A stretch of DNA of 64,000 nucleotides from Gammaproteobacteria bacterium (GTDB lineage Bacteria; Pseudomonadota; Gammaproteobacteria; CAISUE01). This document shows, piece after piece, positions 3,666-47,163 of the stretch. The notes below the pieces were generated by a model that saw only the letters and a program-made list of their open reading frames with translations, was not told the DNA's origin and ran no database searches. The position numbers and the translations under genes are program-made. The DNA lies in contig JAJNBD010000007.1 in NCBI GenBank assembly GCA_021156105.1, forward strand, positions 52,945-116,944, in the 5' to 3' direction. Numbering within the stretch: the stretch's first letter is position 1; every line of letters starts with the position of its first letter.

Positions 3666-5306
3666 TTACCTAGGCGCGCGTCGCATAACAGAATTTTGGG
3701 TATTTGCTGTTCCATTAAAGCCGCTCTCGTTCGGTATGCTACTAACACTTGGAATAGACCAAGTAGAACCGCCATTTATCGTTTGAGCAACTTTTCCTTT
3801 GTCTGCACCATCTTGTCCTGCTGCCGTACAAACTGCCGTGCTTCCCGACCCTGTGCAATGTACGGCAGCAAGTCTTCCTGCCCCCATACCAGTAACAGGC
3901 TCCCAGCTATTAATGCCAGTGGTAGCTTGGTACAAAGGTGAAACACTTGCATTTCCTGCGGCCGCACATCTCAAGTTAGAACCACTGCCACCAGTACAGC
4001 TCACCTGCGTGAACGATCCGTTTATGTCTGAAACCTGGGTATTTTTAGTCCAAGTTTGTCCCGCGTCTGCACTTGTCATTAGTAAGGTTTGAGAGTAATC
4101 TGCATTCGACCCTACAGCAACACAGGCTGCGCTATTACCACTGCCTGTACAACTAACACTATTTAATCTACCCGCAACTGAAGACGCAAGACTCCAATTA
4201 CCACTCCCATCTCTCGTTGCAATTAAAGTATCACCAGCAACTGTTGATCCTACCGCGACACAACGCTTGTCTGCGTCTGAACCCGTGCAGCTAACGGATG
4301 AAAATGTACCATTATCCGCCGTTAAATTCGAAATCACTGTCCAAGTACTTTCCAAGCCTGAAGTGGATTCCGCAAGCACAGGCGTCGCCGCATTTGAGTT
4401 AACGCCGCCAGCAACACAAAGGGTCGAATTTCCTGTATCAGTACACCCCACCGTGGTAAACGCTATTTCTTCTTCTGAGGGGGAAATAACGTTTAATTTG
4501 CTCCACGTAGCATTTTTACGCAGCAAAAGAAGAGCTTTTCCTGCCGCCCCGCTATTTTCACTTCCAGCGGCGATACAGCTACTATTACTGGCGCTACCAT
4601 CTCCCGTGCAAGCGATACTTTTAAGAAAACCGTCTGTCGCAAAGCTGCTTGTTGTCAACTTGCTCCAAGTTTGACCATCAGTTGTTTGATAAAGCAACAA
4701 CGCGCCGCCGTCAGTCTGCTCTCCTACAGCAGCACAAAAGCCTTGCTGTGTATCGCCTAAACAAGCACTACTATTCAGGTGACCTTCTGTCGCTGTATCA
4801 TTAAGAACCGTCTGCCAAGCACCACCACTGTTTAACGATCCCGCAATAAGCGGATAATAGGTAGAAGACTGAACACTATAGCCAACAGCATTTAAAAATG
4901 GCGATGCGCTTGGCGTTGGTGCCCTGACGGAAAAACTCAGCGTTGGATGATAACCAACACGTTCCCCTTGATAATCTACTTGAAAAAATGATTGATTAAA
5001 ACTTCGAGACACTTGGGAGCTCGTTGGTGAAACATGCACAGTAAAAGTACAGCTCGCATTTAACCTTAAACTACCACCGCAGCTATTGGTCGCTAAGGTA
5101 ACAGGGCTAATAAAACCGCTAATCCCTACAGTAAGGTTATCAACCCCTGTATTGTTTGTCAGCGTATAAGTGACTGTCGTTGTCGTACCCGCCGCTAGAG
5201 CCCCTAAGCTTTTGCTTAATGGCGAAAGTTCGACTGGCTGAATTCCATAAGCTAGCCCTGAGAAAAACAAACATCCTGATGCAACTGTTGTTATTAAACG
5301 TTTCAT
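3666..5306 (-). CDS. secreted BNR/Asp-box 7-bladed beta-propeller protein with N-terminal Ig-like domain
   Basis: Signal peptide. Seven repeats of xSCTGxxxxxxCVAVGS interleaved with SxDxGxTW-like Asp-boxes (TTDGQTWSKL, SADAGQTWTK, INGGSTWSI). Confidence 0.6.
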   Translation of the reverse strand: MKRLITTVASGCLFFSGLAYGIQPVELSPLSKSLGALAAGTTTTVTYTLTNNTGVDNLTVGISGFISPVTLATNSCGGSLRLNASCTFTVHVSPTSSQVSRSFNQSFFQVDYQGERVGYHPTLSFSVRAPTPSASPFLNAVGYSVQSSTYYPLIAGSLNSGGAWQTVLNDTATEGHLNSSACLGDTQQGFCAAVGEQTDGGALLLYQTTDGQTWSKLTTSSFATDGFLKSIACTGDGSASNSSCIAAGSENSGAAGKALLLLRKNATWSKLNVISPSEEEIAFTTVGCTDTGNSTLCVAGGVNSNAATPVLAESTSGLESTWTVISNLTADNGTFSSVSCTGSDADKRCVAVGSTVAGDTLIATRDGSGNWSLASSVAGRLNSVSCTGSGNSAACVAVGSNADYSQTLLMTSADAGQTWTKNTQVSDINGSFTQVSCTGGSGSNLRCAAAGNASVSPLYQATTGINSWEPVTGMGAGRLAAVHCTGSGSTAVCTAAGQDGADKGKVAQTINGGSTWSIPSVSSIPNESGFNGTANTQNSVMRRAPR

Positions 5307-8867: not shown

Positions 8868-9647
8868 TTATCTTTTAATTTTGAGTTGAGCTTTGCGCCG
8901 ATCGACTTCTTTGGCCACCGTCACATCAAGTGAGTGAAAAGTCTCTTTTGAAAGTTTAACAACTTTCATAAGCTTAAGCTTTACCTCTCCGTTACCAAGT
9001 GGCATACCAAAGACTACAACGGTGTTAGGGCTGCCGCTCACAGCTTCTAAAGTATTCCCATAGCGAACAGGGTCTTGCCTCTTAACTGCTGCCAGCGCCC
9101 CGATTAAATCATTAACACTTTGAAAAGAATTATCTGCCCCTAATCTTGTAGCTGTATTAGGCAAATATTCATATAGAAAATTAACCGTACTGCTTGGTAT
9201 TGCTGGAGCATCGAGATTCTTGAGAACAGAAACGAGTTCGGCCTTCTTGTCCATTGTTAGCCAGCCTTGTTCCGAAAGAATCGCATTAACATCCCACTCG
9301 TCTGCTTCATCTGCCATAGCGGCCGGGGGAACGCTCTGGGGGATGTATGCATATGTCAAGTTTTCAGCCCCATAAGTCTCCTGAATACGGGGTAAAGCAT
9401 CTTCTAACTCTACTGCTCGGATTGTTACTTCGCTTCTAGCAGCGAGTTGTTGTAGGATTTTATCATTAAAAACATTACTGGAAGCAGGACTGCCCCACTT
9501 AGCAACAGCATAAGAGCCAGTAGTAGCGCTAAGAGCTGAACGGAAATCTTTTGGCGATGAGAATAATTTAACATCCGCAGCAAAAGCCAACGCCGAAGAC
9601 GTTAACGCCACTAATCCAACAGCTAACAATAGTTTTTTCAACTTCAT
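8868..9647 (-). CDS. secreted hypothetical protein
   Basis: Signal peptide (ALAFAA). No recognisable motif. Confidence 0.4.
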   Translation of the reverse strand: MKLKKLLLAVGLVALTSSALAFAADVKLFSSPKDFRSALSATTGSYAVAKWGSPASSNVFNDKILQQLAARSEVTIRAVELEDALPRIQETYGAENLTYAYIPQSVPPAAMADEADEWDVNAILSEQGWLTMDKKAELVSVLKNLDAPAIPSSTVNFLYEYLPNTATRLGADNSFQSVNDLIGALAAVKRQDPVRYGNTLEAVSGSPNTVVVFGMPLGNGEVKLKLMKVVKLSKETFHSLDVTVAKEVDRRKAQLKIKR

Positions 9648-14886: not shown

Positions 14887-16953
14887 TTACTTATCCCTTA
14901 ATACCATAGCAAACTTTGTCTGCAAGGACTGAATAAGACCTTCTGATAGTTGTGTAACTTTTTCATCTGCTAAAGTTTCTTGCTTATCTTGCAACACAAC
15001 GCCAAATGCAAGACTCTTTTGATCAGCTGGCATGTTTTTACCTTGATAAATATCAAACACAATGACATCTACACAGAGCGCGCCCAGCTTAGCTTTTACA
15101 AAATTGATAATTTCCCCTACTGCTTGACCACGGTTTAATAAAAAAGCAAAGTCCCTTCGCACAGAAGGAAACTTACTGATTTCTTGACACTTAATATGTA
15201 CAGGCAGCGCAATTTCCTCCAAAGCCAACTCAAATAAGTAAACTGGTACTGCAAAACCAAAATCTTGCTGCAAGGAAGGATGCAAGCGGCCAAGATGCCC
15301 AATAACTTTATCTTGCGAAATAATTTTTGCCGCTTGTCCTGGATGCAACATAGGACGTTCACTCTTCTCAAAAGTAATGGGCAATTTTAAGCTATCGAGC
15401 AATAACTCCACTTCACCTTTTAAATCAAAAAAATCTGTCTCACTCGCTTTATTGCTCCACTGCTCTGGCACGGCTGCGCCAGCCATTAAGCCGGCTAGCA
15501 TCATCGGCTGTTTTAAACATGCTTTAGCAGCGTCATGTTCATTAAAATAAACACGACCAATTTCAAAATAACGTGCACGTGCTTGTTGACGGTTGAAATT
15601 ATATTGTGCTGTATTTAATAAACTTGGCCATAAGCTGGTGCGCATAATAGCTAGCTCAGCGGATAAAGGATTTTTCAACTTCACTGCTTTATCATTTGGC
15701 ATACATTGCGCTTGCAGGTTTTCGCCAATAAAACTATAGCTAATGATCTCACGAAAGCCTTGGCTGGTGAGCGTTGCACGAATTTTTTGAAATTGGTCAA
15801 CTGCCATTTGCGTTGGCGCTAATTGTTCAATACGGGGTTGGTGCAAAGGTAAATGATCATAGCCATAAACACGCGCCAACTCTTCAATAAAATCGACTTC
15901 TTTGGCAATATCAAAACGAAATGTCGGTGGCGTCACTTGATAATCAGCACTAAGTTGCTGCACCTTCATCTCTAACGCAGTTAAAATTTTTTCTACCGTT
16001 GCCGATGGAATTTCATAGCCTAAAATTCGCTCAATGCGCGATTTTCTTAAAGGAATTGCTTTAGGAGCGGAAATCTCACTACCTTTACTGATTACATATT
16101 CACCAATTTCCCCACCTAAATGCTCAATAATTAATGCCGCTGCATAATCTAAAGCTATTAATGGCAAAGCAGGATCAACACCACGCTCAAAGCGCTGTGC
16201 AGCTTCCGTATGTAAACCATACTGGCGTGCACGACCGGCAATGGCTTCTGGTGCAAAATGGGCGCTTTCTAAAAAAATATTGGTTGTTGCTGGGGCAACG
16301 CCGGAATCTAATCCACCAATAACACCGGCAACTGCTTGCGCGCCATGATCATCGGCAATCACCAAAGTATTGCTTGCAAGTGTTAATGTTTGGCCGCCTA
16401 GCACGGTGAGCTTTTCACCATTTTGTGCAAATCGCACACAAAGATTTTTAACCTTATCCGCATCAAAAGCATGTAGCGGCTGCCCCATTTCTAGCATGAC
16501 ATAATTACAAATATCCACGACAGGATGAATACTTTCAATGCTTGACTTTTCAAGTCGCTCTATCATCCAGGCGGGCGCTTTTTTATTTTGTGGCATTTTA
16601 CGAATGAAACAACCGGTGTATAAGGGACAAGCACTTGGCGCATCAATTTTAACGGATGCAAGATGCTCTTTTTCTGCAGCAAAAGTAGTCGCTTTTTGCA
16701 AAGGTACAGCGGCGTCGGCAAAACCTAAACAAGCAATCTCGCGCACTAAACCGCGCACACTCATGCAATCACCACGATTCGGCGTAATGGAAAAATCAAT
16801 TAGCGTATCATTGCCCGCCTGCTCCATGCTTTCAACTTCAAAGCCACCGCGCGGCATAAAAAAATCAATTTCTTTTGCACTGGGAAACGCTTGTGCAACT
16901 GGCAAATAATTTTTCTCAAAATAATCTCTTAACCAATTTAATGAAACTTTCAT
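14887..16953 (-). CDS. pheT: phenylalanine--tRNA ligase beta subunit, short form lacking the B2 tRNA-binding OB domain
   Basis: Motifs MKVSLNWL, ITPNRGDC, B3/4 editing, B5, and catalytic-like and C-terminal FDX-ACB regions. 688 aa, against about 790 aa for typical PheT. Confidence 0.9.
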   Translation of the reverse strand: MKVSLNWLRDYFEKNYLPVAQAFPSAKEIDFFMPRGGFEVESMEQAGNDTLIDFSITPNRGDCMSVRGLVREIACLGFADAAVPLQKATTFAAEKEHLASVKIDAPSACPLYTGCFIRKMPQNKKAPAWMIERLEKSSIESIHPVVDICNYVMLEMGQPLHAFDADKVKNLCVRFAQNGEKLTVLGGQTLTLASNTLVIADDHGAQAVAGVIGGLDSGVAPATTNIFLESAHFAPEAIAGRARQYGLHTEAAQRFERGVDPALPLIALDYAAALIIEHLGGEIGEYVISKGSEISAPKAIPLRKSRIERILGYEIPSATVEKILTALEMKVQQLSADYQVTPPTFRFDIAKEVDFIEELARVYGYDHLPLHQPRIEQLAPTQMAVDQFQKIRATLTSQGFREIISYSFIGENLQAQCMPNDKAVKLKNPLSAELAIMRTSLWPSLLNTAQYNFNRQQARARYFEIGRVYFNEHDAAKACLKQPMMLAGLMAGAAVPEQWSNKASETDFFDLKGEVELLLDSLKLPITFEKSERPMLHPGQAAKIISQDKVIGHLGRLHPSLQQDFGFAVPVYLFELALEEIALPVHIKCQEISKFPSVRRDFAFLLNRGQAVGEIINFVKAKLGALCVDVIVFDIYQGKNMPADQKSLAFGVVLQDKQETLADEKVTQLSEGLIQSLQTKFAMVLRDK

Positions 16954-18905: not shown

Positions 18906-19805
18906 TTATATTGCCCCATAGTAAGACCGCCTAGGAAGTGGTGGCGTATCAGCAGCAGAGGTGTCGCCGCAACAGCAAGAAGACTTAGGCTTTTTTCCTA
19001 AAAGAGACTGTTTTTCACCATCGCCAAAGAATGTTTGCGAAGCACGATAAGTGTCAGCTAGTCTCCTTGCCATTACCTCAGAATCTTCTCTTGGAGCGCT
19101 TGGAGTACCTGCTACTTCCCCTGCAGAGTAAGTATTTCTTCCAAACCTACCAATAGTTGCATATCCAGCACCCGGAGTAGGTATAAACTGGTCAGCAATT
19201 CTGGTTTCCGGTGGAGGTGTGCTTTGTGAGCGAACATGCCCTCCGCCGCCCAACCTTGCTTTTGCATCTGCTAATCTTTGGGCAAGTAACACGGGGTGGG
19301 CCTTAAGTAACTTAACTGCATATTCATAATTTTTTTGGTTACCAGCATCATTTAATAAGCGATGAGTTTGATCAATAGCCGCATCTAACGCTTTTACTCG
19401 CTTCACTTTTTCTCCCTCAGATTTACGAGGTTTGTTAGCGATATAATCTTGAGCTGCTTTAAACAAAGCAACTAAATATTCTCGCTGGCGATCAATTTCT
19501 CGCATTGTTTTGCCAAGCTCCATATGAGTACTATGTGCTAATTTATCCTCTAGCCTCAAATTGTGAACATTTAAGCTCTGCAAACCACGAAAAGCTTCTT
19601 TCAAAGCTTTCAGCGCCTCATCAATATTTTTGTTAAAGTCATCCCAATGCGAAATGCGTTTCACACCCACAGCAAAAGCGGTATCTGAAAATTGTTTCGC
19701 CGTTTGTACAAATTGATCTAATTTTTGATTTAAACCTTCGAGCTTTTGAAGATTGAGAAGTAGAGCGTCTTTTAATTGGGTAAATGCAGCATCTGAACCA
19801 GGCAT
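18906..19805 (-). CDS. hypothetical coiled-coil protein with C-terminal Cys triplet (effector candidate)
   Basis: Helical N-domain, disordered Gly/Pro C-terminus ending KKPKSSCCCGD.... Confidence 0.45.
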   Translation of the reverse strand: MPGSDAAFTQLKDALLLNLQKLEGLNQKLDQFVQTAKQFSDTAFAVGVKRISHWDDFNKNIDEALKALKEAFRGLQSLNVHNLRLEDKLAHSTHMELGKTMREIDRQREYLVALFKAAQDYIANKPRKSEGEKVKRVKALDAAIDQTHRLLNDAGNQKNYEYAVKLLKAHPVLLAQRLADAKARLGGGGHVRSQSTPPPETRIADQFIPTPGAGYATIGRFGRNTYSAGEVAGTPSAPREDSEVMARRLADTYRASQTFFGDGEKQSLLGKKPKSSCCCGDTSAADTPPLPRRSYYGAI

Positions 19806-20032
19806 AAGTTTTCTCCTTAATATTAAAGTTATTGTTAACAGCAGATTGACTTATCACACGTTTTCTTGTTATTCCTTTTAATAGCCTCCTTTAATTAAGA
19901 GTATATACTTTCTAAAAGTGAAAAACTAGCAGATAAATTTTTCTCACCTGGGGAAACATTTGCCTCAATCTTTAGACTTTTTTTCTTAATAGCGGTAATA
20001 TTTAGCAAGTAATTTTTTCAGGGATAGGATGT

Positions 20033-21166
20033 ATGTATTTTTTGATAAGGAAGCTTTGGCAAATATTATTTAGTCTTACCTTAGTTTGCTTTGCGCATAT
20101 TGGCTTTGCTGCTGACACAGTTAATCATAACAACTCCCCTATTAAAGTTGGCGTTATTATTGGCGCCCCAATTGCTTATCAAGATAAAAATAAAGCTTGG
20201 CACGGCATTATTGTTAACATTTGGGAAGAGATTGCTGCAGAGAATGGTTGGCAGTATGAATTTATCCCAATGGGAGAAAATGTTGAAAATGCTATTAATG
20301 CTGTTTCAGAAAAAAAACTTGATGTCCTAATTGGCCCTATTACAGTTACCTATTCGCGCTTAAAACAAGCAGATTTTTCTCGTCCGTTTATGATTAATAA
20401 AGTCGAGGTGCTAGAACGCGGCCTGCCTATTAATCAGTTTGGCTCTCTGCTCTTGATGGTTTTAGCCAAAGCATTCAACACCTTTTTCTTGATTATCTTC
20501 ATTGTATTTCTCGTCATCGCCCATATCATTTGGCTCTTAGAACGCAAAACGCTCAAAGAATATGGTCAAGGGTATTTACGTGGAATAGCACATACCACTT
20601 GGTCTTTATTAATGCTACTAGTTGGTAGTCAATTGGTGGATCGTCCTAAGCATCACTTATCGCGCTTCTTAATTTTATTAGTGATTTTTTTATCTATTAC
20701 TTTTAGTTCTCTTGTGGCAGCTGCCTTTACTTCATCATTAACTTTATCCTTAGCACCTGCTGCTATACCTCAAGAAAAATCTATTAAGCAACTACAAAGC
20801 AAAACTTTCGCTTCTGTTACAGGCCAATCAACAGGCGCAACAATGCAGAATTTAGGCGGAGATGTGATTTATTTTAATAGTCTACATGAGGCTATTCAGT
20901 CTTTAAAAAATAACCCTAAAATTGATGCGATCGTTGGAGATTCTGTGCTGTTAAAATACAACATTGCTCACACAGCAGGATTTACTGGCCTTAGCTTAAC
21001 CCCTATTTCATTAGATACGGATGAATATGCTGTTGTTTTTCAACATAACAGCCTCTTACGTCAAAATTTTGATTACAGTTTAACTAAGCTAAAAGAAGAA
21101 AACCAAGCTATGCCAATTTGCTTACGTTATTTAGCAGAACAAGATGCCGCCGCTTGCGTGATTTAA
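20033..21166 (+). CDS. ionotropic-glutamate-receptor-like ligand-gated channel (GluR0-type S1-M1-P-M2-S2)
   Basis: Signal peptide. SBP-type-3 lobe split by three hydrophobic segments. Pore-loop-like GIAHTTWSLLMLLVGSQ. M3-like FSSLVAAAFTSSLT resembles the iGluR SYTANLAAF motif. Confidence 0.55.
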   Translation: MYFLIRKLWQILFSLTLVCFAHIGFAADTVNHNNSPIKVGVIIGAPIAYQDKNKAWHGIIVNIWEEIAAENGWQYEFIPMGENVENAINAVSEKKLDVLIGPITVTYSRLKQADFSRPFMINKVEVLERGLPINQFGSLLLMVLAKAFNTFFLIIFIVFLVIAHIIWLLERKTLKEYGQGYLRGIAHTTWSLLMLLVGSQLVDRPKHHLSRFLILLVIFLSITFSSLVAAAFTSSLTLSLAPAAIPQEKSIKQLQSKTFASVTGQSTGATMQNLGGDVIYFNSLHEAIQSLKNNPKIDAIVGDSVLLKYNIAHTAGFTGLSLTPISLDTDEYAVVFQHNSLLRQNFDYSLTKLKEENQAMPICLRYLAEQDAAACVI

Positions 21167-21168
21167 AC

Positions 21169-21510
21169 TTATCCAGAGAGGTGTTGTCGCGTATCAGAAA
21201 GCGTTTCCTTCTCCAAGGTTTCATAGTCATTCTCGTCTAGTGGTTGGAAAGTTTTATTATCATCAGGTTGTTGAAAGAGACTGACTTCCTGCTCAGGCCC
21301 CTTCATCCAACAGGATAATAGACGTTCTTCTAATGTACTATTGTTACTACATAGTATTTTTGCAGAAGCTCGGTCTCGAAGAGGCAATACTGATGACAAC
21401 CCTAAGCTTGTGACTTCTTTATCTTCTAAACTTAGCTCTTCAAATATCTCTTCTAAATCTATTTGCTCGCATGTAGCGCTACGATCACAGTCTTTTCGTT
21501 TACCTGCCAT
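21169..21510 (-). CDS. small acidic hypothetical protein
   Basis: 113 aa, pI strongly acidic. No recognisable motif. Confidence 0.3.
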   Translation of the reverse strand: MAGKRKDCDRSATCEQIDLEEIFEELSLEDKEVTSLGLSSVLPLRDRASAKILCSNNSTLEERLLSCWMKGPEQEVSLFQQPDDNKTFQPLDENDYETLEKETLSDTRQHLSG

Positions 21511-21595
21511 AGGTTTCCACTCATTATTTATTATTAAATGGCCGCCATTTTACCTGAATAAAATTAAAGTTTCCTTAACAGCAGGAGAAAAATCT

Positions 21596-21752
21596 ACAAG
21601 GATCCTCTGTGGGGTATGAAATTTATTGTAGGGTGGGCAAAGCGCTATGCAAGGGGCTTTTTTTACCGCTTTGGTGGGCACGTCGCTAGCGCTCCTTTAC
21701 CCACCCTACAGCGCGTGCCCACCATTTTCATACCCCACAGAGACGAGGATCT
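21596..21752. repeat. MITE/REP-like composite palindromic element
   Basis: About 22-bp terminal inverted repeats (GATCCTCTGTGGGGTATGAAA / TTTCATACCCCACAGAGACGAGGATC). These enclose nested GGTGGGCA...TGCCCACC hairpins. Confidence 0.5.
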
Positions 21753-21954: not shown

Positions 21955-22629
21955 TTACCAATCGATACTTGCCAAACCATCTAAACTTGCAGCGTCGCTA
22001 GTCGTATTTCTAAGCGCGCCTTGCGACATTAAATAATTTTCAATTCTCCAATGCCCTCGTTTGCTCGCCCAGTCAAGCGCCGTATTATGGTGGCGTGTTT
22101 CAGTATTTAATGAAGCCCCTTGTTCAACCAGATATTGCACAATATGGTAATGACCTAATACCGAAGCCAATACCAGAGGTGTACAATGGTGCCAATTGCT
22201 ATACCATGCGGTTGGGGCATTAAAAGAGAGCAATTGTAGCAATCCTTGGAGAATCTTAGAATGTGATAAATCAGGTAAGTAGCCTATCTGAGTATCTGGA
22301 TTAACACCTAACTCAATCCCAACGGCAACACCGGCAAAGTCCCCTTCGACCACATATTTTTGCAGTACATGCTCTTTATAACCGTTTTCAGAAAAGTTCT
22401 TGCTATAAAGACTAAGCACTTCAAAAACATATCGGGATTTTTGCTTGAGCAAGCCATCTTGCAGAGAAGCTAAAATCACTTTGATTGCTGCATTTTCCGA
22501 CTGGACTAAACGGATAAAGCTGGCTGACGTGGGTAAATTGCGATAGGCTAATAGCTGCTTGATTAAAGATTGGTTGTCAGCGCTAAGCTTTGCGTTTTCT
22601 AAAGCATCGAAGAAAATTTCTAGTGACAT
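21955..22629 (-). CDS. ankyrin-repeat protein (effector candidate)
   Basis: Two clear C-terminal ANK repeats (TPLVLASVLGHYHIVQYLVEQGASLN; NTALDWASKRGHWRIENYLMSQGA). Confidence 0.65.
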   Translation of the reverse strand: MSLEIFFDALENAKLSADNQSLIKQLLAYRNLPTSASFIRLVQSENAAIKVILASLQDGLLKQKSRYVFEVLSLYSKNFSENGYKEHVLQKYVVEGDFAGVAVGIELGVNPDTQIGYLPDLSHSKILQGLLQLLSFNAPTAWYSNWHHCTPLVLASVLGHYHIVQYLVEQGASLNTETRHHNTALDWASKRGHWRIENYLMSQGALRNTTSDAASLDGLASIDW

Positions 22630-27564: not shown

Positions 27565-29151
27565 ATGCTTTCCCGCCGTTTTTCACCATTACACATGCTG
27601 TTTTTAAGCATTAATGGCATCATTGGCTCAGCTTGGCTATTCGCACCGCTTTATTCTGCTAAGATTGCTGGCTCAGCTGTTTTACTTTCTTGGCTAATTG
27701 GCGGCGCAGCAACAGTGCTCATTGCTTTCACATTTGCAGAGCTCTCTTCTCTTCTGCCTACCGCTGGCGGCACAACACGCTTCGCAGAATTAACTCACGG
27801 CGCAACAACAGGCTTTATCATTAGCTGGGCATCGTGGCTATCCTGTGTCACCATGCCGCCTATTGAAGTACAAGCGGTATTGCAATATATCTCCACTTAT
27901 ATACCTAGTTTAGTGATTACTTCTGATAATCACATGCCAGTATTAAGTGGCTTTGGCTTAATGTGGGCTGTCATTTTAATGCTAGGTTTGACTTTCTTAA
28001 ATATTGCCAGCTTCAAAGGCTTTATTCGCGCAAACTTTTTAATTTTTAGCTTCAAAGTTCTCGTCATTATTCTAACGATTGCGATGCTCATCACCACCAA
28101 ATTTCATCCACAGAATTTTACTTTCTCTGCTAGCAGTGCAAGTAGTTTAAACTGGCAAGCCATTTTAAGCGCTGTCGCAACTGGCGGAATTGCATTTGCT
28201 TTTACGGGCTTTAAGCACGGCGTGGAACTTGCGGGAGAAATGACCAAGCCTAAACTTTCCATTCCACTTGCCATCGTTGGTTCTGTCATCATTTGTTTAA
28301 TATTATATGTTGGCTTGCAAATTGCTTTTATTGGCGCGCTTGAACCTTCCGAACTTACTCATGGCTGGGCTAATTTACACTTTAGCGGCGATGTCGGTCC
28401 GTTTGTTGGTATAGCCGCTAGCTTAGGTATTTTTTGGTTAGTGAAATTATTATTAGTTGATGCCGCGGTATCTCCGCTAGGCGCTGGCTTAATTTATGTC
28501 ACGTCAACCGCACGCATTATTTATGCCATGAGCCGCAATCATTATTTAAGCCCTTTTTTCTCGGAACTCAGCGAACAAAAAATGCCATTATTTGCCATCT
28601 GGTTTAATTTTGCGGTGGGTATCTTATTGTTTTTACCATTACCTGGCTGGCAAAATATGGTCAGTTTTTTAGTATCTGCGGTCGTTATTTCTTATGCAAT
28701 GGGCCCTATTGCAACGGTCGCACTTCGCAAACAATTACCCAACATCAAGCGTAGCTTCCGTTTGCCCTTTAATACGCTTTTATGCTTCGTCGCATTTTAT
28801 TGTTGCAACCTCATTAGCTACTGGACTGGCTGGGATACTTTATGGAAGCTTGCTATTGCCTTAATTGTTGGCAGTTTTCTATTTATTACGAATTCACGTT
28901 TCCGTTTAAGTAATCCAACAGTTGGCTTTAAAAGCCTTTGGTGGTTAATCCCCTACCTCGCTGGCTTAGTCATTTTAAGTTATTTAGGCGAATATGGCGG
29001 CGGCCATCACATTATTACTTTTGGCTGGGATTTTTTAATCATTGCCATTTTTAGTTTAATTATTTTTTCAATTGCAATTCAGACAAGATTACCAAGCCAT
29101 ATTGTAGAAAAAGAGTTTGCACAGCTACAGCTGGAAACCAACGCTGAGTAA
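27565..29151 (+). CDS. APC-family amino-acid permease
   Basis: 12 predicted TM helices. Gly-rich motifs typical of the APC superfamily. Confidence 0.7.
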   Translation: MLSRRFSPLHMLFLSINGIIGSAWLFAPLYSAKIAGSAVLLSWLIGGAATVLIAFTFAELSSLLPTAGGTTRFAELTHGATTGFIISWASWLSCVTMPPIEVQAVLQYISTYIPSLVITSDNHMPVLSGFGLMWAVILMLGLTFLNIASFKGFIRANFLIFSFKVLVIILTIAMLITTKFHPQNFTFSASSASSLNWQAILSAVATGGIAFAFTGFKHGVELAGEMTKPKLSIPLAIVGSVIICLILYVGLQIAFIGALEPSELTHGWANLHFSGDVGPFVGIAASLGIFWLVKLLLVDAAVSPLGAGLIYVTSTARIIYAMSRNHYLSPFFSELSEQKMPLFAIWFNFAVGILLFLPLPGWQNMVSFLVSAVVISYAMGPIATVALRKQLPNIKRSFRLPFNTLLCFVAFYCCNLISYWTGWDTLWKLAIALIVGSFLFITNSRFRLSNPTVGFKSLWWLIPYLAGLVILSYLGEYGGGHHIITFGWDFLIIAIFSLIIFSIAIQTRLPSHIVEKEFAQLQLETNAE

Positions 29152-30332: not shown

Positions 30333-30962
30333 TTAACACTGTGTTCTGATCTCTCCTTGCAATTGAATGCCTGAGGCTTTTTGTTCAAAGCACATATTGA
30401 CTAAACTATTCTGGCTATTTATAGCCCCTATACCTTGAATGCTATTAACATTAACTTGGGATGCTACTAGATATAACTGCGGGGTTCCTGCATTCGCTAT
30501 AGTTTTTAATTTTCCTGTAGTTTTTTTATCTTCCTGCATTGTGTTATTTACCCATTCTAAGGTAATAAGCTTTGCTTGGATTTTTGCCGTATTTCCGTTA
30601 CCGCTATTACTATTATCGACCTTTATTGTTGCACCATTTTCTACCACGATATTTTGCGCGGAAATATTTCCTTGCACAATTAGGGTCGTGTTTGGATGGA
30701 GTAAAATCTCTCCTAAAACTGTTAAAGAGCCTGCGTTAACTGTATAAGTTTTACCCTCCGCAATAGCTAAAGAATTTAAGCTCGTATCACCTGAAGATGC
30801 TACGTTCTGAGCAATTGTATTTGCCGCAGGAATTCCATCATTTGATTGACTATCTACTGGCCCAAAGTATCCCGAGCCAATATTTAAAACCGTATCCTGA
30901 GCAAACCCACTTAAAGGTAATAACAAACCTGCTAACAATAACAATTTGCGATATTGGCTCAT
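30333..30962 (-). CDS. secreted hypothetical protein (beta-helix-like, Asn/Gly/Ser-rich)
   Basis: Signal peptide. Repetitive N/G/S/T-rich beta sequence. Confidence 0.4.
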   Translation of the reverse strand: MSQYRKLLLLAGLLLPLSGFAQDTVLNIGSGYFGPVDSQSNDGIPAANTIAQNVASSGDTSLNSLAIAEGKTYTVNAGSLTVLGEILLHPNTTLIVQGNISAQNIVVENGATIKVDNSNSGNGNTAKIQAKLITLEWVNNTMQEDKKTTGKLKTIANAGTPQLYLVASQVNVNSIQGIGAINSQNSLVNMCFEQKASGIQLQGEIRTQC

Positions 30963-37772: not shown

Positions 37773-39530
37773 ATGGCAAAGCGCTCTTTTCTCCGTAAAA
37801 TTTTTAGTTGGAAAACACCCGCCAAGCTACTGGCGGTTGTCGGTGTTGGCGTGATTACCTTTCTTACAACATTATTCACCAAGCAAGGGCTAGCAGATTT
37901 TTTATCAAGCTATACCGCTTCATTAACTGAGCCAGCAATCCAAGTCATCTCTTGGACCACAGGTGCACTAACCGGCGTTGCTACCTTCTCACGCTTAATC
38001 GACAACAGTTGGATAAAATTAACTTTTTGGGGACAAAAACTTGATAATCAAACAGCAAGTGCTTTTACTGGCAGAATATACTTCCTGGATCTTGCTGAAA
38101 CAAAATTAAAAGGTATTGAAAAAATTGTTAACATTGTTTTCAATCAAACCACGCGCTGCCAACAAGAATTCTATAAATACGCTTTAACAATAGAACAATT
38201 AGAAGAGCTTAGCCAAAAATTAAAAAAATTGAAAAAAGAATTGAATACCATGCCAAAGTTACGTGATGAAATTCTACAATTATTATTAAATAATGAAGCC
38301 GAAGATAAAAAACACCTAGAAAAAAAAAGAAAATTACAAGCCAGGTTAAATCTTTTTATTGCTCAGCACCATAAAGCCAATAAACAACTTAATAAGCTTC
38401 AAAGTAAAATTATAAAAATCATCACTCCTCAGATAAACAGAAAACAAAAATACTTAGCATCTCGTACCGCCCCACTTCCTGCACCAATATCATCTTATCA
38501 ACAATCTCAACCACAAATAGGCGCTGGAGTGGTTGACCCTGTTGAGAACGATACTAACCATGAGATTGCTTTACACTTACCCGATCAATCCTTACGGCAA
38601 CCAGATCGACCGTTATCACTACCCAGAGTATTTAATACCTACCAATTTTCTATCGCAGAAATACCCATGGCATTATTAGCAGCTGGGGCTATTACCGCAA
38701 TCGTTGTTACATCAACAGCGATTACAGAAAGAGAGATCAAAAGTTTTTTAATGCATTACGCAAAAGAAATAGCATTACCACGTGCACTAGCTCTCGCCTG
38801 GTCAGCTGCCAGCTTTTTTGGGATTATCGCAACAACAGAAGCAGGCGCATTTTGGCATAAGTTAAGTTATTGGGGACAAATAATTGATAAAACTTTATGG
38901 AGAATTTTTACTGGTGAAAGATATTTCCTTGATAAAGTAGAAAATAAATTAACTGACGTTGAAAATCATATTAGCGTAATTTTTTCTAGAGCGAGTGACT
39001 TCTATGATATGTTCTATTCAGGAGAATTAAGTGATAGCGAGCTCAAAAAACTTAACAGCGACCTGGAAGCGTTAAAAACAACTTTAGAAACCAGACCTAC
39101 AGAACTCAGCGAAGAAATTGTCGCCCTGTTAACTCACAATGACCCTAGAGATCATCATCATTTTAAACGTAAAAAAGCTCAACAAGAAAGATTAAATTTT
39201 TTCATTATTAACGCTAGTACTATTTTTGAAAGCATTAATGAGCTGCAACAGAAAATTCTGGGCGTTTTACAACCAGAGGCAAATGCACTTGATCTTTACA
39301 CGGCAAGAACTCAGTATCTACCATTGCCCCCAGTAGAGCAACAAGCTCAAGAGGATAACGAGGTTGTGCTTAGCGGACAAGAACCAACAGCAACGCCACG
39401 AATACCGCAAAGACGAATAAATACCTATCCTCATCCGGTATTTCAAACCACAACGAGAAGCAATCCAGACCAGTCGACGCCAGCAGAAAGCGCAGATGAA
39501 ACGACTGCGCTACTGCTAAAAACATCTTAA
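37773..39530 (+). CDS. hypothetical membrane-anchored coiled-coil protein with internal tandem duplication (effector candidate)
   Basis: Two homologous ~290-aa halves, each with a TM segment, a W/YWGQxxDx and GxRYFLD motif, a coiled-coil, a [15 protein letters not shown] / [13 protein letters not shown] basic motif and a TxYLPLP tail. Confidence 0.5.
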
Positions 39531-42486: not shown

Positions 42487-43731
42487 TTAAGAAATATAAC
42501 TCATACCTGGCTGCTGATACCTTACTTCATTAGCCACCAATTTTGCAGGCCTCGCCGCTGGCTTTTTAAAAATGCCAACCTGGCTAGCATCTATTGCTCT
42601 TTTTGCTCTTTTGCTAGAGTCTGCATCCATAGGCAATAAAGGGACAGGCCGCTTATATGCTTTAGTAGCTTGTTGTTGAAGCATCTCTCCTGCAATCGTC
42701 TTAATGAAGCTTGCGCTAGACAGAATTGCTTGCTCAAAGAATATTGAGGCTTCGCCTCGGTTAACCTCCACTACTTGAAAACCATGCCAAAGTAGCATTG
42801 CTTTAATAAAAGAGACCTCTGGCGTTGGCAAATAGGTATAATTTTCTAAAAATTCAACCATCTCCTTGGCTTCGCTAAGCGTAACTTTTGCAAGCTTCCT
42901 TTGAAAGCAAGTTAATAAGTTAATGAAATGGGGTAACCGCAACACATCCTCGAGTTGCTGTGCCCGCAAAGCTAATATTTGGCACAAGCGAGTACACAAT
43001 ACTTGGCTCCATAGCCTTTGCTGCACATCAAATAATAAAGTTTTTGCCCGCTCACACGCTTGAGAGAAATTGTGAGGGAAAATAGCGGGGCCTGTAAAAT
43101 AAAATACATTTAGCTTACAAAAGGTTCGTTCATGCCTATCCTCAGTAACGGATAAAGCATGCTCTGACTGCGCTTGAATAATTGACCAAACTTTAGAAGA
43201 TAAAATAATTTTTTTCTGCTGATCCAAAATGATTAAAGCCGAGTAAATGTGTGGTCTTAGCCGACAGTCTATGTCATCAACCATCGGCATCCTCCCATCA
43301 TCTATAAGCATAGCGCCACATTCTTGAAGCAGTAAAATATTCAATAGTGGTTGATGAATTTTGTAAGGCAAAACCAAAATGCTTTTAACTAACTCGAATA
43401 TTAAACCAGCAGAAATTTGCGGTGCGTCTTTTGCTTTATTCTCTAAAACTTGCAGCACCGCTGGTAACTGACTAGAAAAATTAAAATCAAGAAAATTTAT
43501 CAAAGCACCATATGCCTCATCCACACCTCGCGCGGCGTAATAAAGGCATTGCGCTTGGAGGATTTGGATTTGCGCTGCATTCAGCTCAGATGCCAGAAGA
43601 ACCTTCTTATCCTTTTTTGCTTGCTCTAATTTCAATGCAGCAATAAGTTCAAGCAAAGCTGCTTGATTTCTTTTGTCATCCCAAGGACCTTCAAGGCAAT
43701 GAAAAAAATTTGCTATCTTCTCTTTTAACAT
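42487..43731 (-). CDS. hypothetical helical protein (effector candidate)
   Basis: 414 aa, no signal peptide, no known motif. Basic C-terminus. Confidence 0.4.
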   Translation of the reverse strand: MLKEKIANFFHCLEGPWDDKRNQAALLELIAALKLEQAKKDKKVLLASELNAAQIQILQAQCLYYAARGVDEAYGALINFLDFNFSSQLPAVLQVLENKAKDAPQISAGLIFELVKSILVLPYKIHQPLLNILLLQECGAMLIDDGRMPMVDDIDCRLRPHIYSALIILDQQKKIILSSKVWSIIQAQSEHALSVTEDRHERTFCKLNVFYFTGPAIFPHNFSQACERAKTLLFDVQQRLWSQVLCTRLCQILALRAQQLEDVLRLPHFINLLTCFQRKLAKVTLSEAKEMVEFLENYTYLPTPEVSFIKAMLLWHGFQVVEVNRGEASIFFEQAILSSASFIKTIAGEMLQQQATKAYKRPVPLLPMDADSSKRAKRAIDASQVGIFKKPAARPAKLVANEVRYQQPGMSYIS

Positions 43732-45000: not shown

Positions 45001-47163
45001 TTAACCAAGACCAGGACGAGAACGGGCACTACCCGGCAACGTTGATCGCGTACTAGTATCAGCAGGCATTGGAATTGCCGCGGCTGCTCTTTGCGCCAAA
45101 AGCCCATTACCACGTTGCATCAGCTGAGCAACACCAGAGGTAGGTTGCTGGCACGCTTCAAAAACAAGCGTTTCGTTATACTTTAGCTCTGGCAACCGTT
45201 CAGGTTGACCTTGGCAATTAATGGTAATTTTTTCCCGACAAAATGGCGAGCCAAAGCCCTTTCGAGAAAACTGCATTTTCATAATAGCTCGCTCTTTAGA
45301 TAAAGAAATTTCCTCTGGATCAAATTTAATAAGCGATTCTTCAGAGTCTGAGCGTGCTGAAAAATTTTGTGTGAAATATAAAGTTAAACTATGACATGAA
45401 TAATCTACTGCAAAAATATGAGTTAAATTTATTTTTAATTTATCTGCCGTAAAAGCTTGGTAGTATTTAGCAATACCCATTAAACCTAATTGGAAGAACG
45501 TAGTTAAATCAAGTTTAAAACGGCTCCTTTGCTCGGACGTCGTTAAAGGTTCTTCAATTTGAGTTAACAACCAAGCCCCCAGCCCTGCCATATTAACTAT
45601 ATCTGAATAAAGCTTAACCAACGGCCCCAAGTTTCTCGGAAAAACGTTCCTGCTTACAACTTCATCAATCGCCATTTCAAGTGCATTATCACGAGACATC
45701 GCAATCCTTTCTTCAAAACTCATACTACAAGCTAGCGGTGTAGATGCAATGTTTGTTAATAAATCTATTAAACGAGTATTTTCTTGAAGCGCGGCTTTCG
45801 TCACCAAACCAGTAAAAGTATATTCTGGGGAAGTAAAAAAATCTTGAGAAACTTGAGTGCTCAATTGAAAAAATCGTTTGAATTTCTCGCACTCCCTAGG
45901 GTCTTTTAATACGCTAATATATGCCTCTTGCAACTTATCTAAAATGGTCGGATCGTATTGAAGGAATTTCTCCACCACCTCAGCCATACTAAATTCTCGT
46001 AGGCCTGTTAAAAAATACCTTAAAAATGTATTTTTTTCTATTAAATTAGAAATCGCAACGGTCTCAAAGTGTTGTAATGAAAAATAATTCTTAGCAAATT
46101 TTTGTAATTCGTCATCATAAAAATTTCCTTTATCTATTTCCTGAATCTTTTCAGACAAGAATTTATAAGCGTTTTCGTCCTTTAAGCCAGCCAATTTTTC
46201 AAGCTCTTCTGCAGAAATAAAATGCCTCAAATAAACTGTATCATCAATATTTTTTTGACCAGGCTTTAAATGTTGAAACTCTGTAAATACCCGCTTCATT
46301 AACCAGAAAGAAGCTTTATTAGGAAACTGCGCCAATCTCAAACGATAAAAAAACTGTAATTTTTGTAAACATTCTTTCGAATCAGAAAAGCGCGCAAAAT
46401 AAGTAATTAACTCTGCCCTAACCTCTTCAAAATCCTTTTGTATCTTACCAAAATCTTCCTGCTTAAGATCATACCTGCTTTTTTTCCCCACAATAAAACA
46501 CTGCGCACTCGCAAAACCTTTGCCAAGCACCGAGCATAATTTGTTTAAACTGCCACAAATTTTTGATAGGGCATTTGAATCAATTTCGACATTATGGAAT
46601 TGCAGATACTGGTTAATAGCGGCAGCCAAGTCAGGGGTACTTTCTTTGACTTGATAATAAAGCTTGGCCAATATTTCGCTTTCATCCTCTGTTAAACACA
46701 TGCATGGTGTCAATAAGCGCTGCAGAAAATCTGGATATGCCAAAATAGCCGCTTGATAATTATTCTCTAAGCGTTGCAAATCTAAAAGAAGATGCGAAAT
46801 AATAGAAGATTGGTTTTTTCCTTGTAAAGCAGTTTTTATTTTCGTCAACAAATCGATTAGAAGATAAAAACCATAATGCTTTATCTGTCTCTCAGTCTTT
46901 GCCTCTTGTGCCTTGGCATTCTCACCATTTCTATACCAAGTTTCATCTACCAAAAAACTTCCGGAAGAAATATTTTTTAACTCAGGACGAGCTTCTAATA
47001 ACTTGCTAATTTTGGCAAATTCATTATTTTTTAAAGCGCTAATCGCGTCTTTAAAATCAGTAGGAAATTTATTAGAGAAAGCTAAATAATATTCGGTATT
47101 GGCATGATAATATAATGCAGCCTTCGCAAATGATTCTATCAACGTAGGATCAGAAAAAGGCAT
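45001..47163 (-). CDS. large hypothetical helical protein (effector candidate)
   Basis: 720 aa, no signal peptide. Ala/Pro/Arg-rich disordered C-terminal 40 aa. Confidence 0.45.
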   Translation of the reverse strand: MPFSDPTLIESFAKAALYYHANTEYYLAFSNKFPTDFKDAISALKNNEFAKISKLLEARPELKNISSGSFLVDETWYRNGENAKAQEAKTERQIKHYGFYLLIDLLTKIKTALQGKNQSSIISHLLLDLQRLENNYQAAILAYPDFLQRLLTPCMCLTEDESEILAKLYYQVKESTPDLAAAINQYLQFHNVEIDSNALSKICGSLNKLCSVLGKGFASAQCFIVGKKSRYDLKQEDFGKIQKDFEEVRAELITYFARFSDSKECLQKLQFFYRLRLAQFPNKASFWLMKRVFTEFQHLKPGQKNIDDTVYLRHFISAEELEKLAGLKDENAYKFLSEKIQEIDKGNFYDDELQKFAKNYFSLQHFETVAISNLIEKNTFLRYFLTGLREFSMAEVVEKFLQYDPTILDKLQEAYISVLKDPRECEKFKRFFQLSTQVSQDFFTSPEYTFTGLVTKAALQENTRLIDLLTNIASTPLACSMSFEERIAMSRDNALEMAIDEVVSRNVFPRNLGPLVKLYSDIVNMAGLGAWLLTQIEEPLTTSEQRSRFKLDLTTFFQLGLMGIAKYYQAFTADKLKINLTHIFAVDYSCHSLTLYFTQNFSARSDSEESLIKFDPEEISLSKERAIMKMQFSRKGFGSPFCREKITINCQGQPERLPELKYNETLVFEACQQPTSGVAQLMQRGNGLLAQRAAAAIPMPADTSTRSTLPGSARSRPGLG

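Follow-up and report, generated by a model that had tools for sequence, protein, structure and literature searches.

Does the 377-residue protein encoded at positions 20033..21166 of a 64,000-nucleotide stretch of gammaproteobacterial DNA (contig JAJNBD010000007.1; hereafter the window) act as an amino-acid-gated ion channel, and to which ionotropic glutamate receptors (iGluRs) is its pore related? That GluR0 is a glutamate-gated K+ channel was described by Chen et al. 1999 (cited in PMC2950845 and PMC12226733), and not until 2026 did the first report of a physiological role for it appear (PMC13099474). In 2010, Ger et al. distinguished 12 'Group 1' prokaryotic iGluRs, which have a K+ filter, from 10 'Group 2' members, the pore regions of which are unlike any known selectivity filter (PMC2950845). 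Our analysis suggests, with a probability of about 0.7, that the window gene encodes a GluR0-type tetrameric channel gated by an amino acid; it joins a known kind, the prokaryotic iGluRs without a K+ filter, which is functionally unexplored. A sequence-only reading of the same DNA had proposed a GluR0-type identity, which our results uphold, together with an animal-like pore and third membrane segment and acquisition by horizontal transfer, neither of which our results support.

The open reading frame (ORF) is present exactly as that reading described it and includes both hydrophobic segments that it quoted, GIAHTTWSLLMLLVGSQ at residues 183-199 and FSSLVAAAFTSSLT at residues 224-237. The gene and its parts, in which S1 and S2 denote the two lobes of the ligand-binding domain, are as follows:

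20033..21166, + strand: the whole gene, a GluR0-type prokaryotic iGluR homologue of 377 residues with an ATG start; monocistronic.
20020..20028, + strand: AGGGATAGG, a purine-rich, Shine-Dalgarno-like element read from the sequence, ending 4 nt 5' of the ATG.
20033..20110, + strand: signal peptide, residues 1-26, with predicted cleavage between G-F-A and A-D, consistent with a signal-peptidase I site; basic N-terminus (R6/K7), hydrophobic core and small residues at -3/-1.
20132..20428, + strand: S1 of the ligand-binding domain, residues 34-132, aligning to GluR0 residues 5-96; contains P102, T104 and R109 in GPITVTYSR.
20435..20542, + strand: pre-M1 helix (135-147) and M1 (150-170), ending in the W167..E170-R171 family motif; assigned by AlphaFold2 and a hydropathy peak of 3.1.
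20573..20653, + strand: pore helix (181-198) and re-entrant loop (199-207), YLRGIAHTTWSLLMLLVGSQLVDRPKH; assigned from the hhalign register and family alignments.
20654..20752, + strand: M3 inner helix, residues 208-240; contains A230, T233 and L236-T237 of the family motif (F)TAxxTSxLT.
20774..21163, + strand: S2 of the ligand-binding domain, residues 248-377, aligning to GluR0 residues 90-211; contains G264-Q265-S266-T267, D303 and C363/C375.

In the hydropathy profile, an N-terminal hydrophobic leader is followed by two strong transmembrane (TM) segments, whose centres fall at residues 145-165 and 216-227 and which flank a weaker stretch; no hydrophobic segment was found past residue 241 and none after S2. 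Among Pfam families, SBP_bac_3 matched as a single domain split over residues 37-359 (60.6 bits), such that a membrane module of 115 residues interrupts a domain of the substrate-binding-protein type. Lig_chan (PF00060) matched residues 153-258 with an E-value of 4.7e-6 and a score of 26.9 bits, against a curated cut-off of 30.8, and Lig_chan-Glu_bd scored 29.1 bits (cut-off 30; E about 1e-6). The Lig_chan shortfall is a matter of threshold and not of absent similarity. No match to Ion_trans_2 was obtained in the channel protein at E<=1. The best match among all Protein Data Bank (PDB) sequences was Slr1257, the Synechocystis GluR0 ligand-binding core (E 1e-14), which aligned as two segments, one for S1 and one for S2, while plant GLR3.4 and GluN2B/2C aligned over residues 83-353, membrane part included.

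When 1.84 billion cluster representatives were searched exhaustively with a profile, 1130 matched at E<=1e-30, mostly proteins of 350-400 residues aligned end to end; the 141 best single-module representatives served as the family set. With K+-type proteins defined by the motif [TS][VIL]GYG, 31/141 carry this motif and 110/141 lack it. The motif at the end of M1 is kept across the set, with W in 119/141, E in 126/141 and R in 112/141. An AlphaFold2 model built from the 141-sequence alignment had a predicted local distance difference test (pLDDT) score of 91.7 and a predicted template modelling score (pTM) of 0.81, whereas an earlier model from seven sequences was poor (pLDDT 68.8). The model consists of a leader helix (residues 2-28), S1 (37-129; pLDDT about 98 at residues 41-120 and lower towards either end), the pre-M1 helix (135-147), M1 (150-170), the pore helix (181-198), a loop (199-207), M3 (208-240) and S2 (248-375), and M4 is absent. 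The structure prediction thus places M1, the pore helix with its loop and M3 between the two lobes, and the 50 best Foldseek matches to this model in the PDB were all chains comprising the ligand-binding domain and transmembrane domain (LBD-TMD) of AMPA, kainate and NMDA receptors. The lowest E-value was 3e-19 over about 374 aligned columns (GluA1-4 LBD-TMD chains), and identity was 16-18%. Template modelling (TM) scores were 0.47-0.62, values that the placing of the two domains relative to each other may have reduced; the listed matches included no full-length bacterial GluR0 chain. Pfam, the PDB search, AlphaFold2 and Foldseek therefore agree on the S1-M1-P-M2-S2 layout without N-terminal domain or M4 that the sequence-only reading had recognized as that of GluR0, and confirm a GluR0-type architecture; neither of the findings that would have spoken against it, a lack of iGluR-family matches or of a pore module between the lobes, was made.

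The signal peptide would place S1 in the periplasm following its predicted cleavage. Because of this signal peptide and the abundance of lysine and arginine in the loops between M1 and the pore helix (4/13 residues) and between the pore helix and M3 (3/14 residues), the ligand-binding domain is predicted to be periplasmic, with the pore loop entering from the cytoplasm. The same topology, which is inverted relative to that of K+ channels, has been shown experimentally only for Synechocystis GluR0, at the plasma membrane (PMC13099474).

We then mapped the ligand-contact residues of GluR0 onto the window protein. R109 in S1 aligns to its GluR0 counterpart and is Arg in 132/141 family representatives, and in S2, D303 of VGDSVLLKY falls on the Asp of FDRP in GluR0 and is Asp in 106/141. 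D298 was considered as the α-amino contact and ruled out, as the GluR0 alignment points to D303. P102, T104 and R109 occupy the positions of the Pro, Thr and Arg that grip the α-carboxylate in GluR0 and in GluA2 (P478, T480 and R485), and D303 corresponds to GluA2 E705, the α-amino contact. As the R109 and D303 sites are both present, the ligand is likely an α-amino acid. Ger et al. (PMC2950845) name these two residues, the Arg of S1 and the Asp of S2, as conserved in prokaryotic iGluRs, where they bind the α-carboxyl and α-amino groups, respectively.

S2 also contains the cysteines C363 and C375, the codons of which lie in 21119..21157, and this pair (ICLRYL....AACVI) is invariant within the close clade of the window protein. 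Two or more cysteines within the last 40 residues occur in 65/110 non-K+ representatives versus 0/31 of the K+-type, and the pair may form a periplasmic disulfide that marks the non-K+ subgroup. It differs from the GluA2 C718-C773 disulfide, in which the cysteines stand 55 residues apart.

The sequence-only reading had held the pore and M3 to be more like those of animal iGluRs. Comparison by hhalign of a TM profile built from six clade members with the 31 K+-type GluR0-like proteins gave a probability of 99% and an E-value of 5.4e-18 over 104 columns at 30% identity, in a register that sets LLVGSQLVDRPK opposite tTVG-YGDKtP such that LVGSQ occupies the place of TVGYG. The T, Y and second G of the filter are accordingly replaced by L, S and Q, with the V-G and the later Asp and Pro kept. 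Searched against all PDB sequences, the six-member TM profile found no eukaryotic iGluR and no K+ channel but only chance matches (Vangl and uS4, E>=0.28), and the TM region with its linkers, searched as a single sequence, reached plant GLR3.4 at a non-significant E-value of 1.1. Lig_chan scored 56.8 bits in the K+-type relative P0022 versus 26.9 bits in the window protein; this family matched at E<=0.001 in 31/31 K+-type and 98/110 non-K+ representatives, while Ion_trans_2 matched in 31/31 and 20/110, respectively. Judged by its sequence, the pore is a degenerate bacterial K+-type pore.

For M3, the family register aligns LVAAAFTSSLT with SYTANLAAFLT at 3/11 identities, and no other register did better. 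Mean identities to SYTANLAAFLT across the family were 3.9 for K+-type and 3.7 for non-K+ proteins, and 83/141 representatives scored >=4. On this alignment SYTANLAAF finds its true counterpart in the bacterial consensus (F/Y)TAxxTSxLT, from which the window clade has drifted. The outer end of M3 carries small residues, A229, T233 and T237, on one helix face, with T233 conserved in 117/141 and T237 in 128/141 representatives.

Within the clade, mean pairwise identity is highest in the pore loop (0.69) and M3 (0.71), compared with 0.50-0.60 in the lobes. In this clade WSLLMLL.G..L.D.P and SS/AL..AA.TSSLTLSL are nearly invariant among members only 40-88% identical overall. Such conservation, greatest in the pore loop and M3, argues for a role of the membrane part beyond anchoring. 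The ratio of nonsynonymous to synonymous substitution rates (dN/dS) against an 88% identical relative was 0.095 for the whole gene and lowest, at 0.049, in the membrane part, indicating that the gene is under purifying selection. As the database contains an identical protein, on a 185-kb contig of a metagenome-assembled genome labelled 'Gammaproteobacteria bacterium', and five relatives of 40-88% identity, and given this dN/dS, we conclude that the ORF is a real gene and not a chance occurrence.

In the mechanism that we propose, a Sec signal peptide would export the two-lobed amino-acid-binding domain (S1 and S2) to the periplasm, and the stretch joining the lobes would be embedded in the inner membrane as the pre-M1 helix and M1, then the pore helix, whose re-entrant loop would enter from the cytoplasm, and M3. 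By analogy to GluR0 and eukaryotic iGluRs, four subunits would assemble around one central pore. The clamshell, on closing around an α-amino acid held by R109 and D303, would pull the linkers between M3 and S2, opening a gate at the outer end of M3, and an external, possibly host-derived, amino acid would then lead to depolarization or ion exchange through a poorly selective cation pore. Our analysis shows the architecture, the fold, family membership, the ligand-contact residues and purifying selection, and the rest of this scheme, from tetramer assembly and gating to the nature of the ligand, selectivity for ions and a physiological role, is inferred. Because the carbonyl cage of GYG is lost in the change from TVGYG to LVGSQ, K+ selectivity is most likely absent, and a weakly selective cation pore is our best guess.

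Several observations weigh against an amino-acid-gated channel. Scores for Lig_chan and Lig_chan-Glu_bd fall slightly below the Pfam curated cut-offs, the AlphaFold2 model is a monomer and thus without pore geometry, and the register of the filter shifts by up to two positions among alignments. One clade member, P0006, has Asn at the position of D303 and GGF in place of GSQ. In addition, Ger et al. went no further for the non-K+ prokaryotic iGluRs than to suggest the annotation 'putative glutamate-sensitive ion channel' (PMC2950845).

As the main rival, the protein could be an amino-acid sensor or binding protein anchored in the membrane, with a pore that has ceased to conduct; the filter would be a relic and the membrane part only an anchor or signal relay. 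Loss of the K+ signature and the extreme variability of the filter region among the 110 non-K+ representatives, as if selectivity were unconstrained, fit such a role, as does the lack of demonstrated conductance in the non-K+ group (PMC2950845). However, a mere anchor would not need the near-invariance of WSLLMLL.G..L.D.P, the pore loop and M3 are more conserved than the lobes, dN/dS is lowest in the membrane part, and no adjacent signalling partner gene is conserved at the loci of the 88% and 42% identical relatives; we therefore consider a non-conducting sensor rather unlikely, if worth keeping in mind. A K+-selective, glutamate-gated channel with the function of Synechocystis GluR0 would share the architecture, the homologous pore domain revealed by hhalign, and the V-G, Asp and Pro of the filter. 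In K+ channels, though, the backbone carbonyls of GYG are required for K+ selectivity, and the window protein has lost T, Y and the second G and gives no Ion_trans_2 match where all 31 K+-type proteins do, making this function very improbable.

That the channel was horizontally acquired, with a pore and M3 specifically related to those of animal iGluRs, could be argued from the lack of TVGYG and from the animal receptors being the best Foldseek matches, although the list of matches contained no full-length bacterial GluR0 chain; in addition, an ungapped alignment made by eye to the GluA2 M2-M3 region shares G-I...W, P, R and L-T. The TM profile without a eukaryotic match, the Lig_chan score well below that of P0022 and the three identities in M3 speak against this origin, as do a ligand-binding domain that is closest to bacterial GluR0 cores and a clade that is nested in a bacterial subgroup of at least 63 tips. 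Base composition, synteny and co-divergence with PheT, described below, favour vertical descent, and we find the animal-related origin scarcely credible. Even further from probable, to the point of being nearly negligible, is the JGI annotation of the protein as an ordinary substrate-binding protein of a polar-amino-acid ATP-binding cassette (ABC) transporter. It agrees with the SBP_bac_3 match, with weak NCBIfam matches of GlnH/ArtJ type and with the source annotations, but the NCBIfam scores are far under their cut-offs (GlnH, 51 vs 303 bits), the 115-residue membrane module interrupts the domain, and no permease or ATPase gene is adjacent in loci L001, L003 and L004. An amino-acid-gated channel of the GluR0 type remains the reading that we prefer.

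A bolder version of that reading would make the clade a functionally new kind of amino-acid-gated channel, in which WSLLMLLVGSQLVD.P confers a selectivity unlike that of GluR0 (non-selective cation, divalent or even anion) and a host-associated bacterium relays its host's amino-acid levels as an electrical or ionic signal; the non-K+ majority, many with a C-terminal cysteine pair, would then constitute an uncharacterized channel class. We regard this as speculative and unlikely.

A neighbour-joining tree placed the window clade within a subgroup of at least 63 tips, all without the K+ motif. The close clade is rare, comprising six 90%-identity clusters among 5.8 billion proteins, every one of them from uncultured gammaproteobacteria. 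A search of GTDB species genomes with the six-sequence clade alignment found one genome only, that of P0006, and a further protein search with a 27-sequence subgroup profile returned known members only. Among distant K+-type relatives, P0032, P0037, P0093 and P0048 (606-722 residues) carry an OpuAC (glycine-betaine binding protein) domain N-terminal to the GluR0 module, a two-tier extracellular layout that parallels, without homology, the stacking of amino-terminal domain and ligand-binding domain in eukaryotic iGluRs. The giant proteins P0008, P0063, P0085, P0140 and P0144 (1225-2009 residues) match the profile in 8-16 separate stretches; P0008 has nine SBP_bac_3 stretches and no channel-family match.

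The channel gene lies between two ORFans, a divergent upstream neighbour at 18906..19805 on the - strand and a convergent downstream neighbour of 113 residues at 21169..21510 on the - strand, which ends 2 bp past the channel stop codon. No overlapping ORF of >=60 residues was found on the opposite strand of 20033..21166. The 227-bp spacer 5' of the channel gene contains no sigma-70-like site that we could find, the sole promoter-like site on the + strand around the gene falling within the ORF. A scan of 19700..21700 found no terminator-like hairpin, and Rfam and tRNA scans around the gene found nothing.

The horizontal acquisition suggested by the sequence-only reading could be examined through base composition, gene order and divergence. 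GC content at third codon positions (GC3) is 0.302 in the channel gene and 0.285-0.388 in 17 other ORFs of the window. At locus L003, that of the 88% relative, the gene order is the same (pheST, ORFan, channel gene, small ORFan, ankyrin gene, rplY, pth), and the gene of the 42% relative adjoins ftsK and lies near pheT, both of which the window also carries. Identities of the channel and of PheT on the same contigs are 88 vs 86% and 42 vs 53%. Because synteny is conserved, GC3 is host-like and channel divergence tracks that of PheT, the evidence points to vertical descent within the lineage and not to recent transfer. A conserved functional partner gene was also sought and rejected, as the flanking ORFans are common to the 88% relative only and not to the 42% relative. 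The ORF at 27565..29151 on the + strand, 6.4 kb 3' of the channel gene, has a counterpart in L003 (528 residues, same length and gene-order position) with AA_permease domains; its placing near the channel is probably coincidental synteny.

The lineage belongs to the uncultured gammaproteobacteria. Its PheT (14887..16953, - strand; 688 residues) is without the N-terminal tRNA-binding domain (PF01588) of the approximately 790-residue gammaproteobacterial PheT proteins in the match list, a short form common to the closest relatives and to an entry labelled Candidatus Berkiella sp., and its identity to any named organism is at most about 41-45%. For eight sizeable ORFs Pfam gave no match (3666..5306, 8868..9647, 18906..19805, 21169..21510, 30333..30962, 42487..43731 and 45001..47163, all on the - strand, and 37773..39530 on the + strand), and an ankyrin-repeat gene is located at 21955..22629 on the - strand. 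These ORFs and the ankyrin gene are interspersed with hemX/hemY, a penicillin-binding protein gene (Transpeptidase/PBP_dimer), ftsK, pheST, rplY, pth and gyrA. The gene content fits a host-associated genome, in which the unmatched ORFs and the ankyrin gene may represent the effector-like load typical of such bacteria. Neither a tRNA gene nor an Rfam family at gathering threshold was found in the whole 64 kb. GC skew is negative in 31/32 2-kb windows and cumulative skew falls almost unbroken; given this near-uniform skew, the window probably lies inside one replichore, away from origin and terminus.

Synaptic glutamate receptors are presumed to descend from prokaryotic iGluR homologues, of which only the K+-selective GluR0 has been studied functionally. 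The locus described here provides a well-modelled and strongly constrained non-K+ example, and is a candidate with which to begin functional work on this group. As non-K+ proteins outnumber K+ proteins 110 to 31 among the 141 closest representatives, selectivity and ligand range are reasonable experimental targets. The picture of iGluR evolution is left unchanged, as the pore provides no link to animal receptors.

Compared with known systems, the window protein differs from GluR0 (Slr1257 of Synechocystis PCC 6803) and other Group 1 members in having LVGSQ where they have TVGYG, in lacking an Ion_trans_2 match, and in carrying Cys363/Cys375, a pair found in 0/31 K+-type representatives; identity to them is only about 20-30%. 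Identity to a Group 2 representative, the Nostoc punctiforme 'GluR0' (PDB 2pyy), is only 23%, a comparison made on the ligand-binding core. Relative to the periplasmic binding proteins GlnH, ArtJ and HisJ/LAO, the domain in the window protein is broken by a channel module and has no ABC partner genes. Like eukaryotic iGluRs (AMPA, kainate, NMDA and plant GLR), the protein has an LBD-TMD fold with the order pre-M1, M1, pore helix and M3, although the membrane part alone shows no significant sequence similarity to theirs. Unlike them, it has no amino-terminal (LIVBP-like) domain, S1 starting about 10 residues past the signal peptide, and no M4, the chain ending at residue 377 inside S2, and SYTANLAAF is not conserved. 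What sets the window clade apart is its own nearly invariant WSLLMLLVGSQLVD.P pore sequence, carried by an uncultured gammaproteobacterial lineage.

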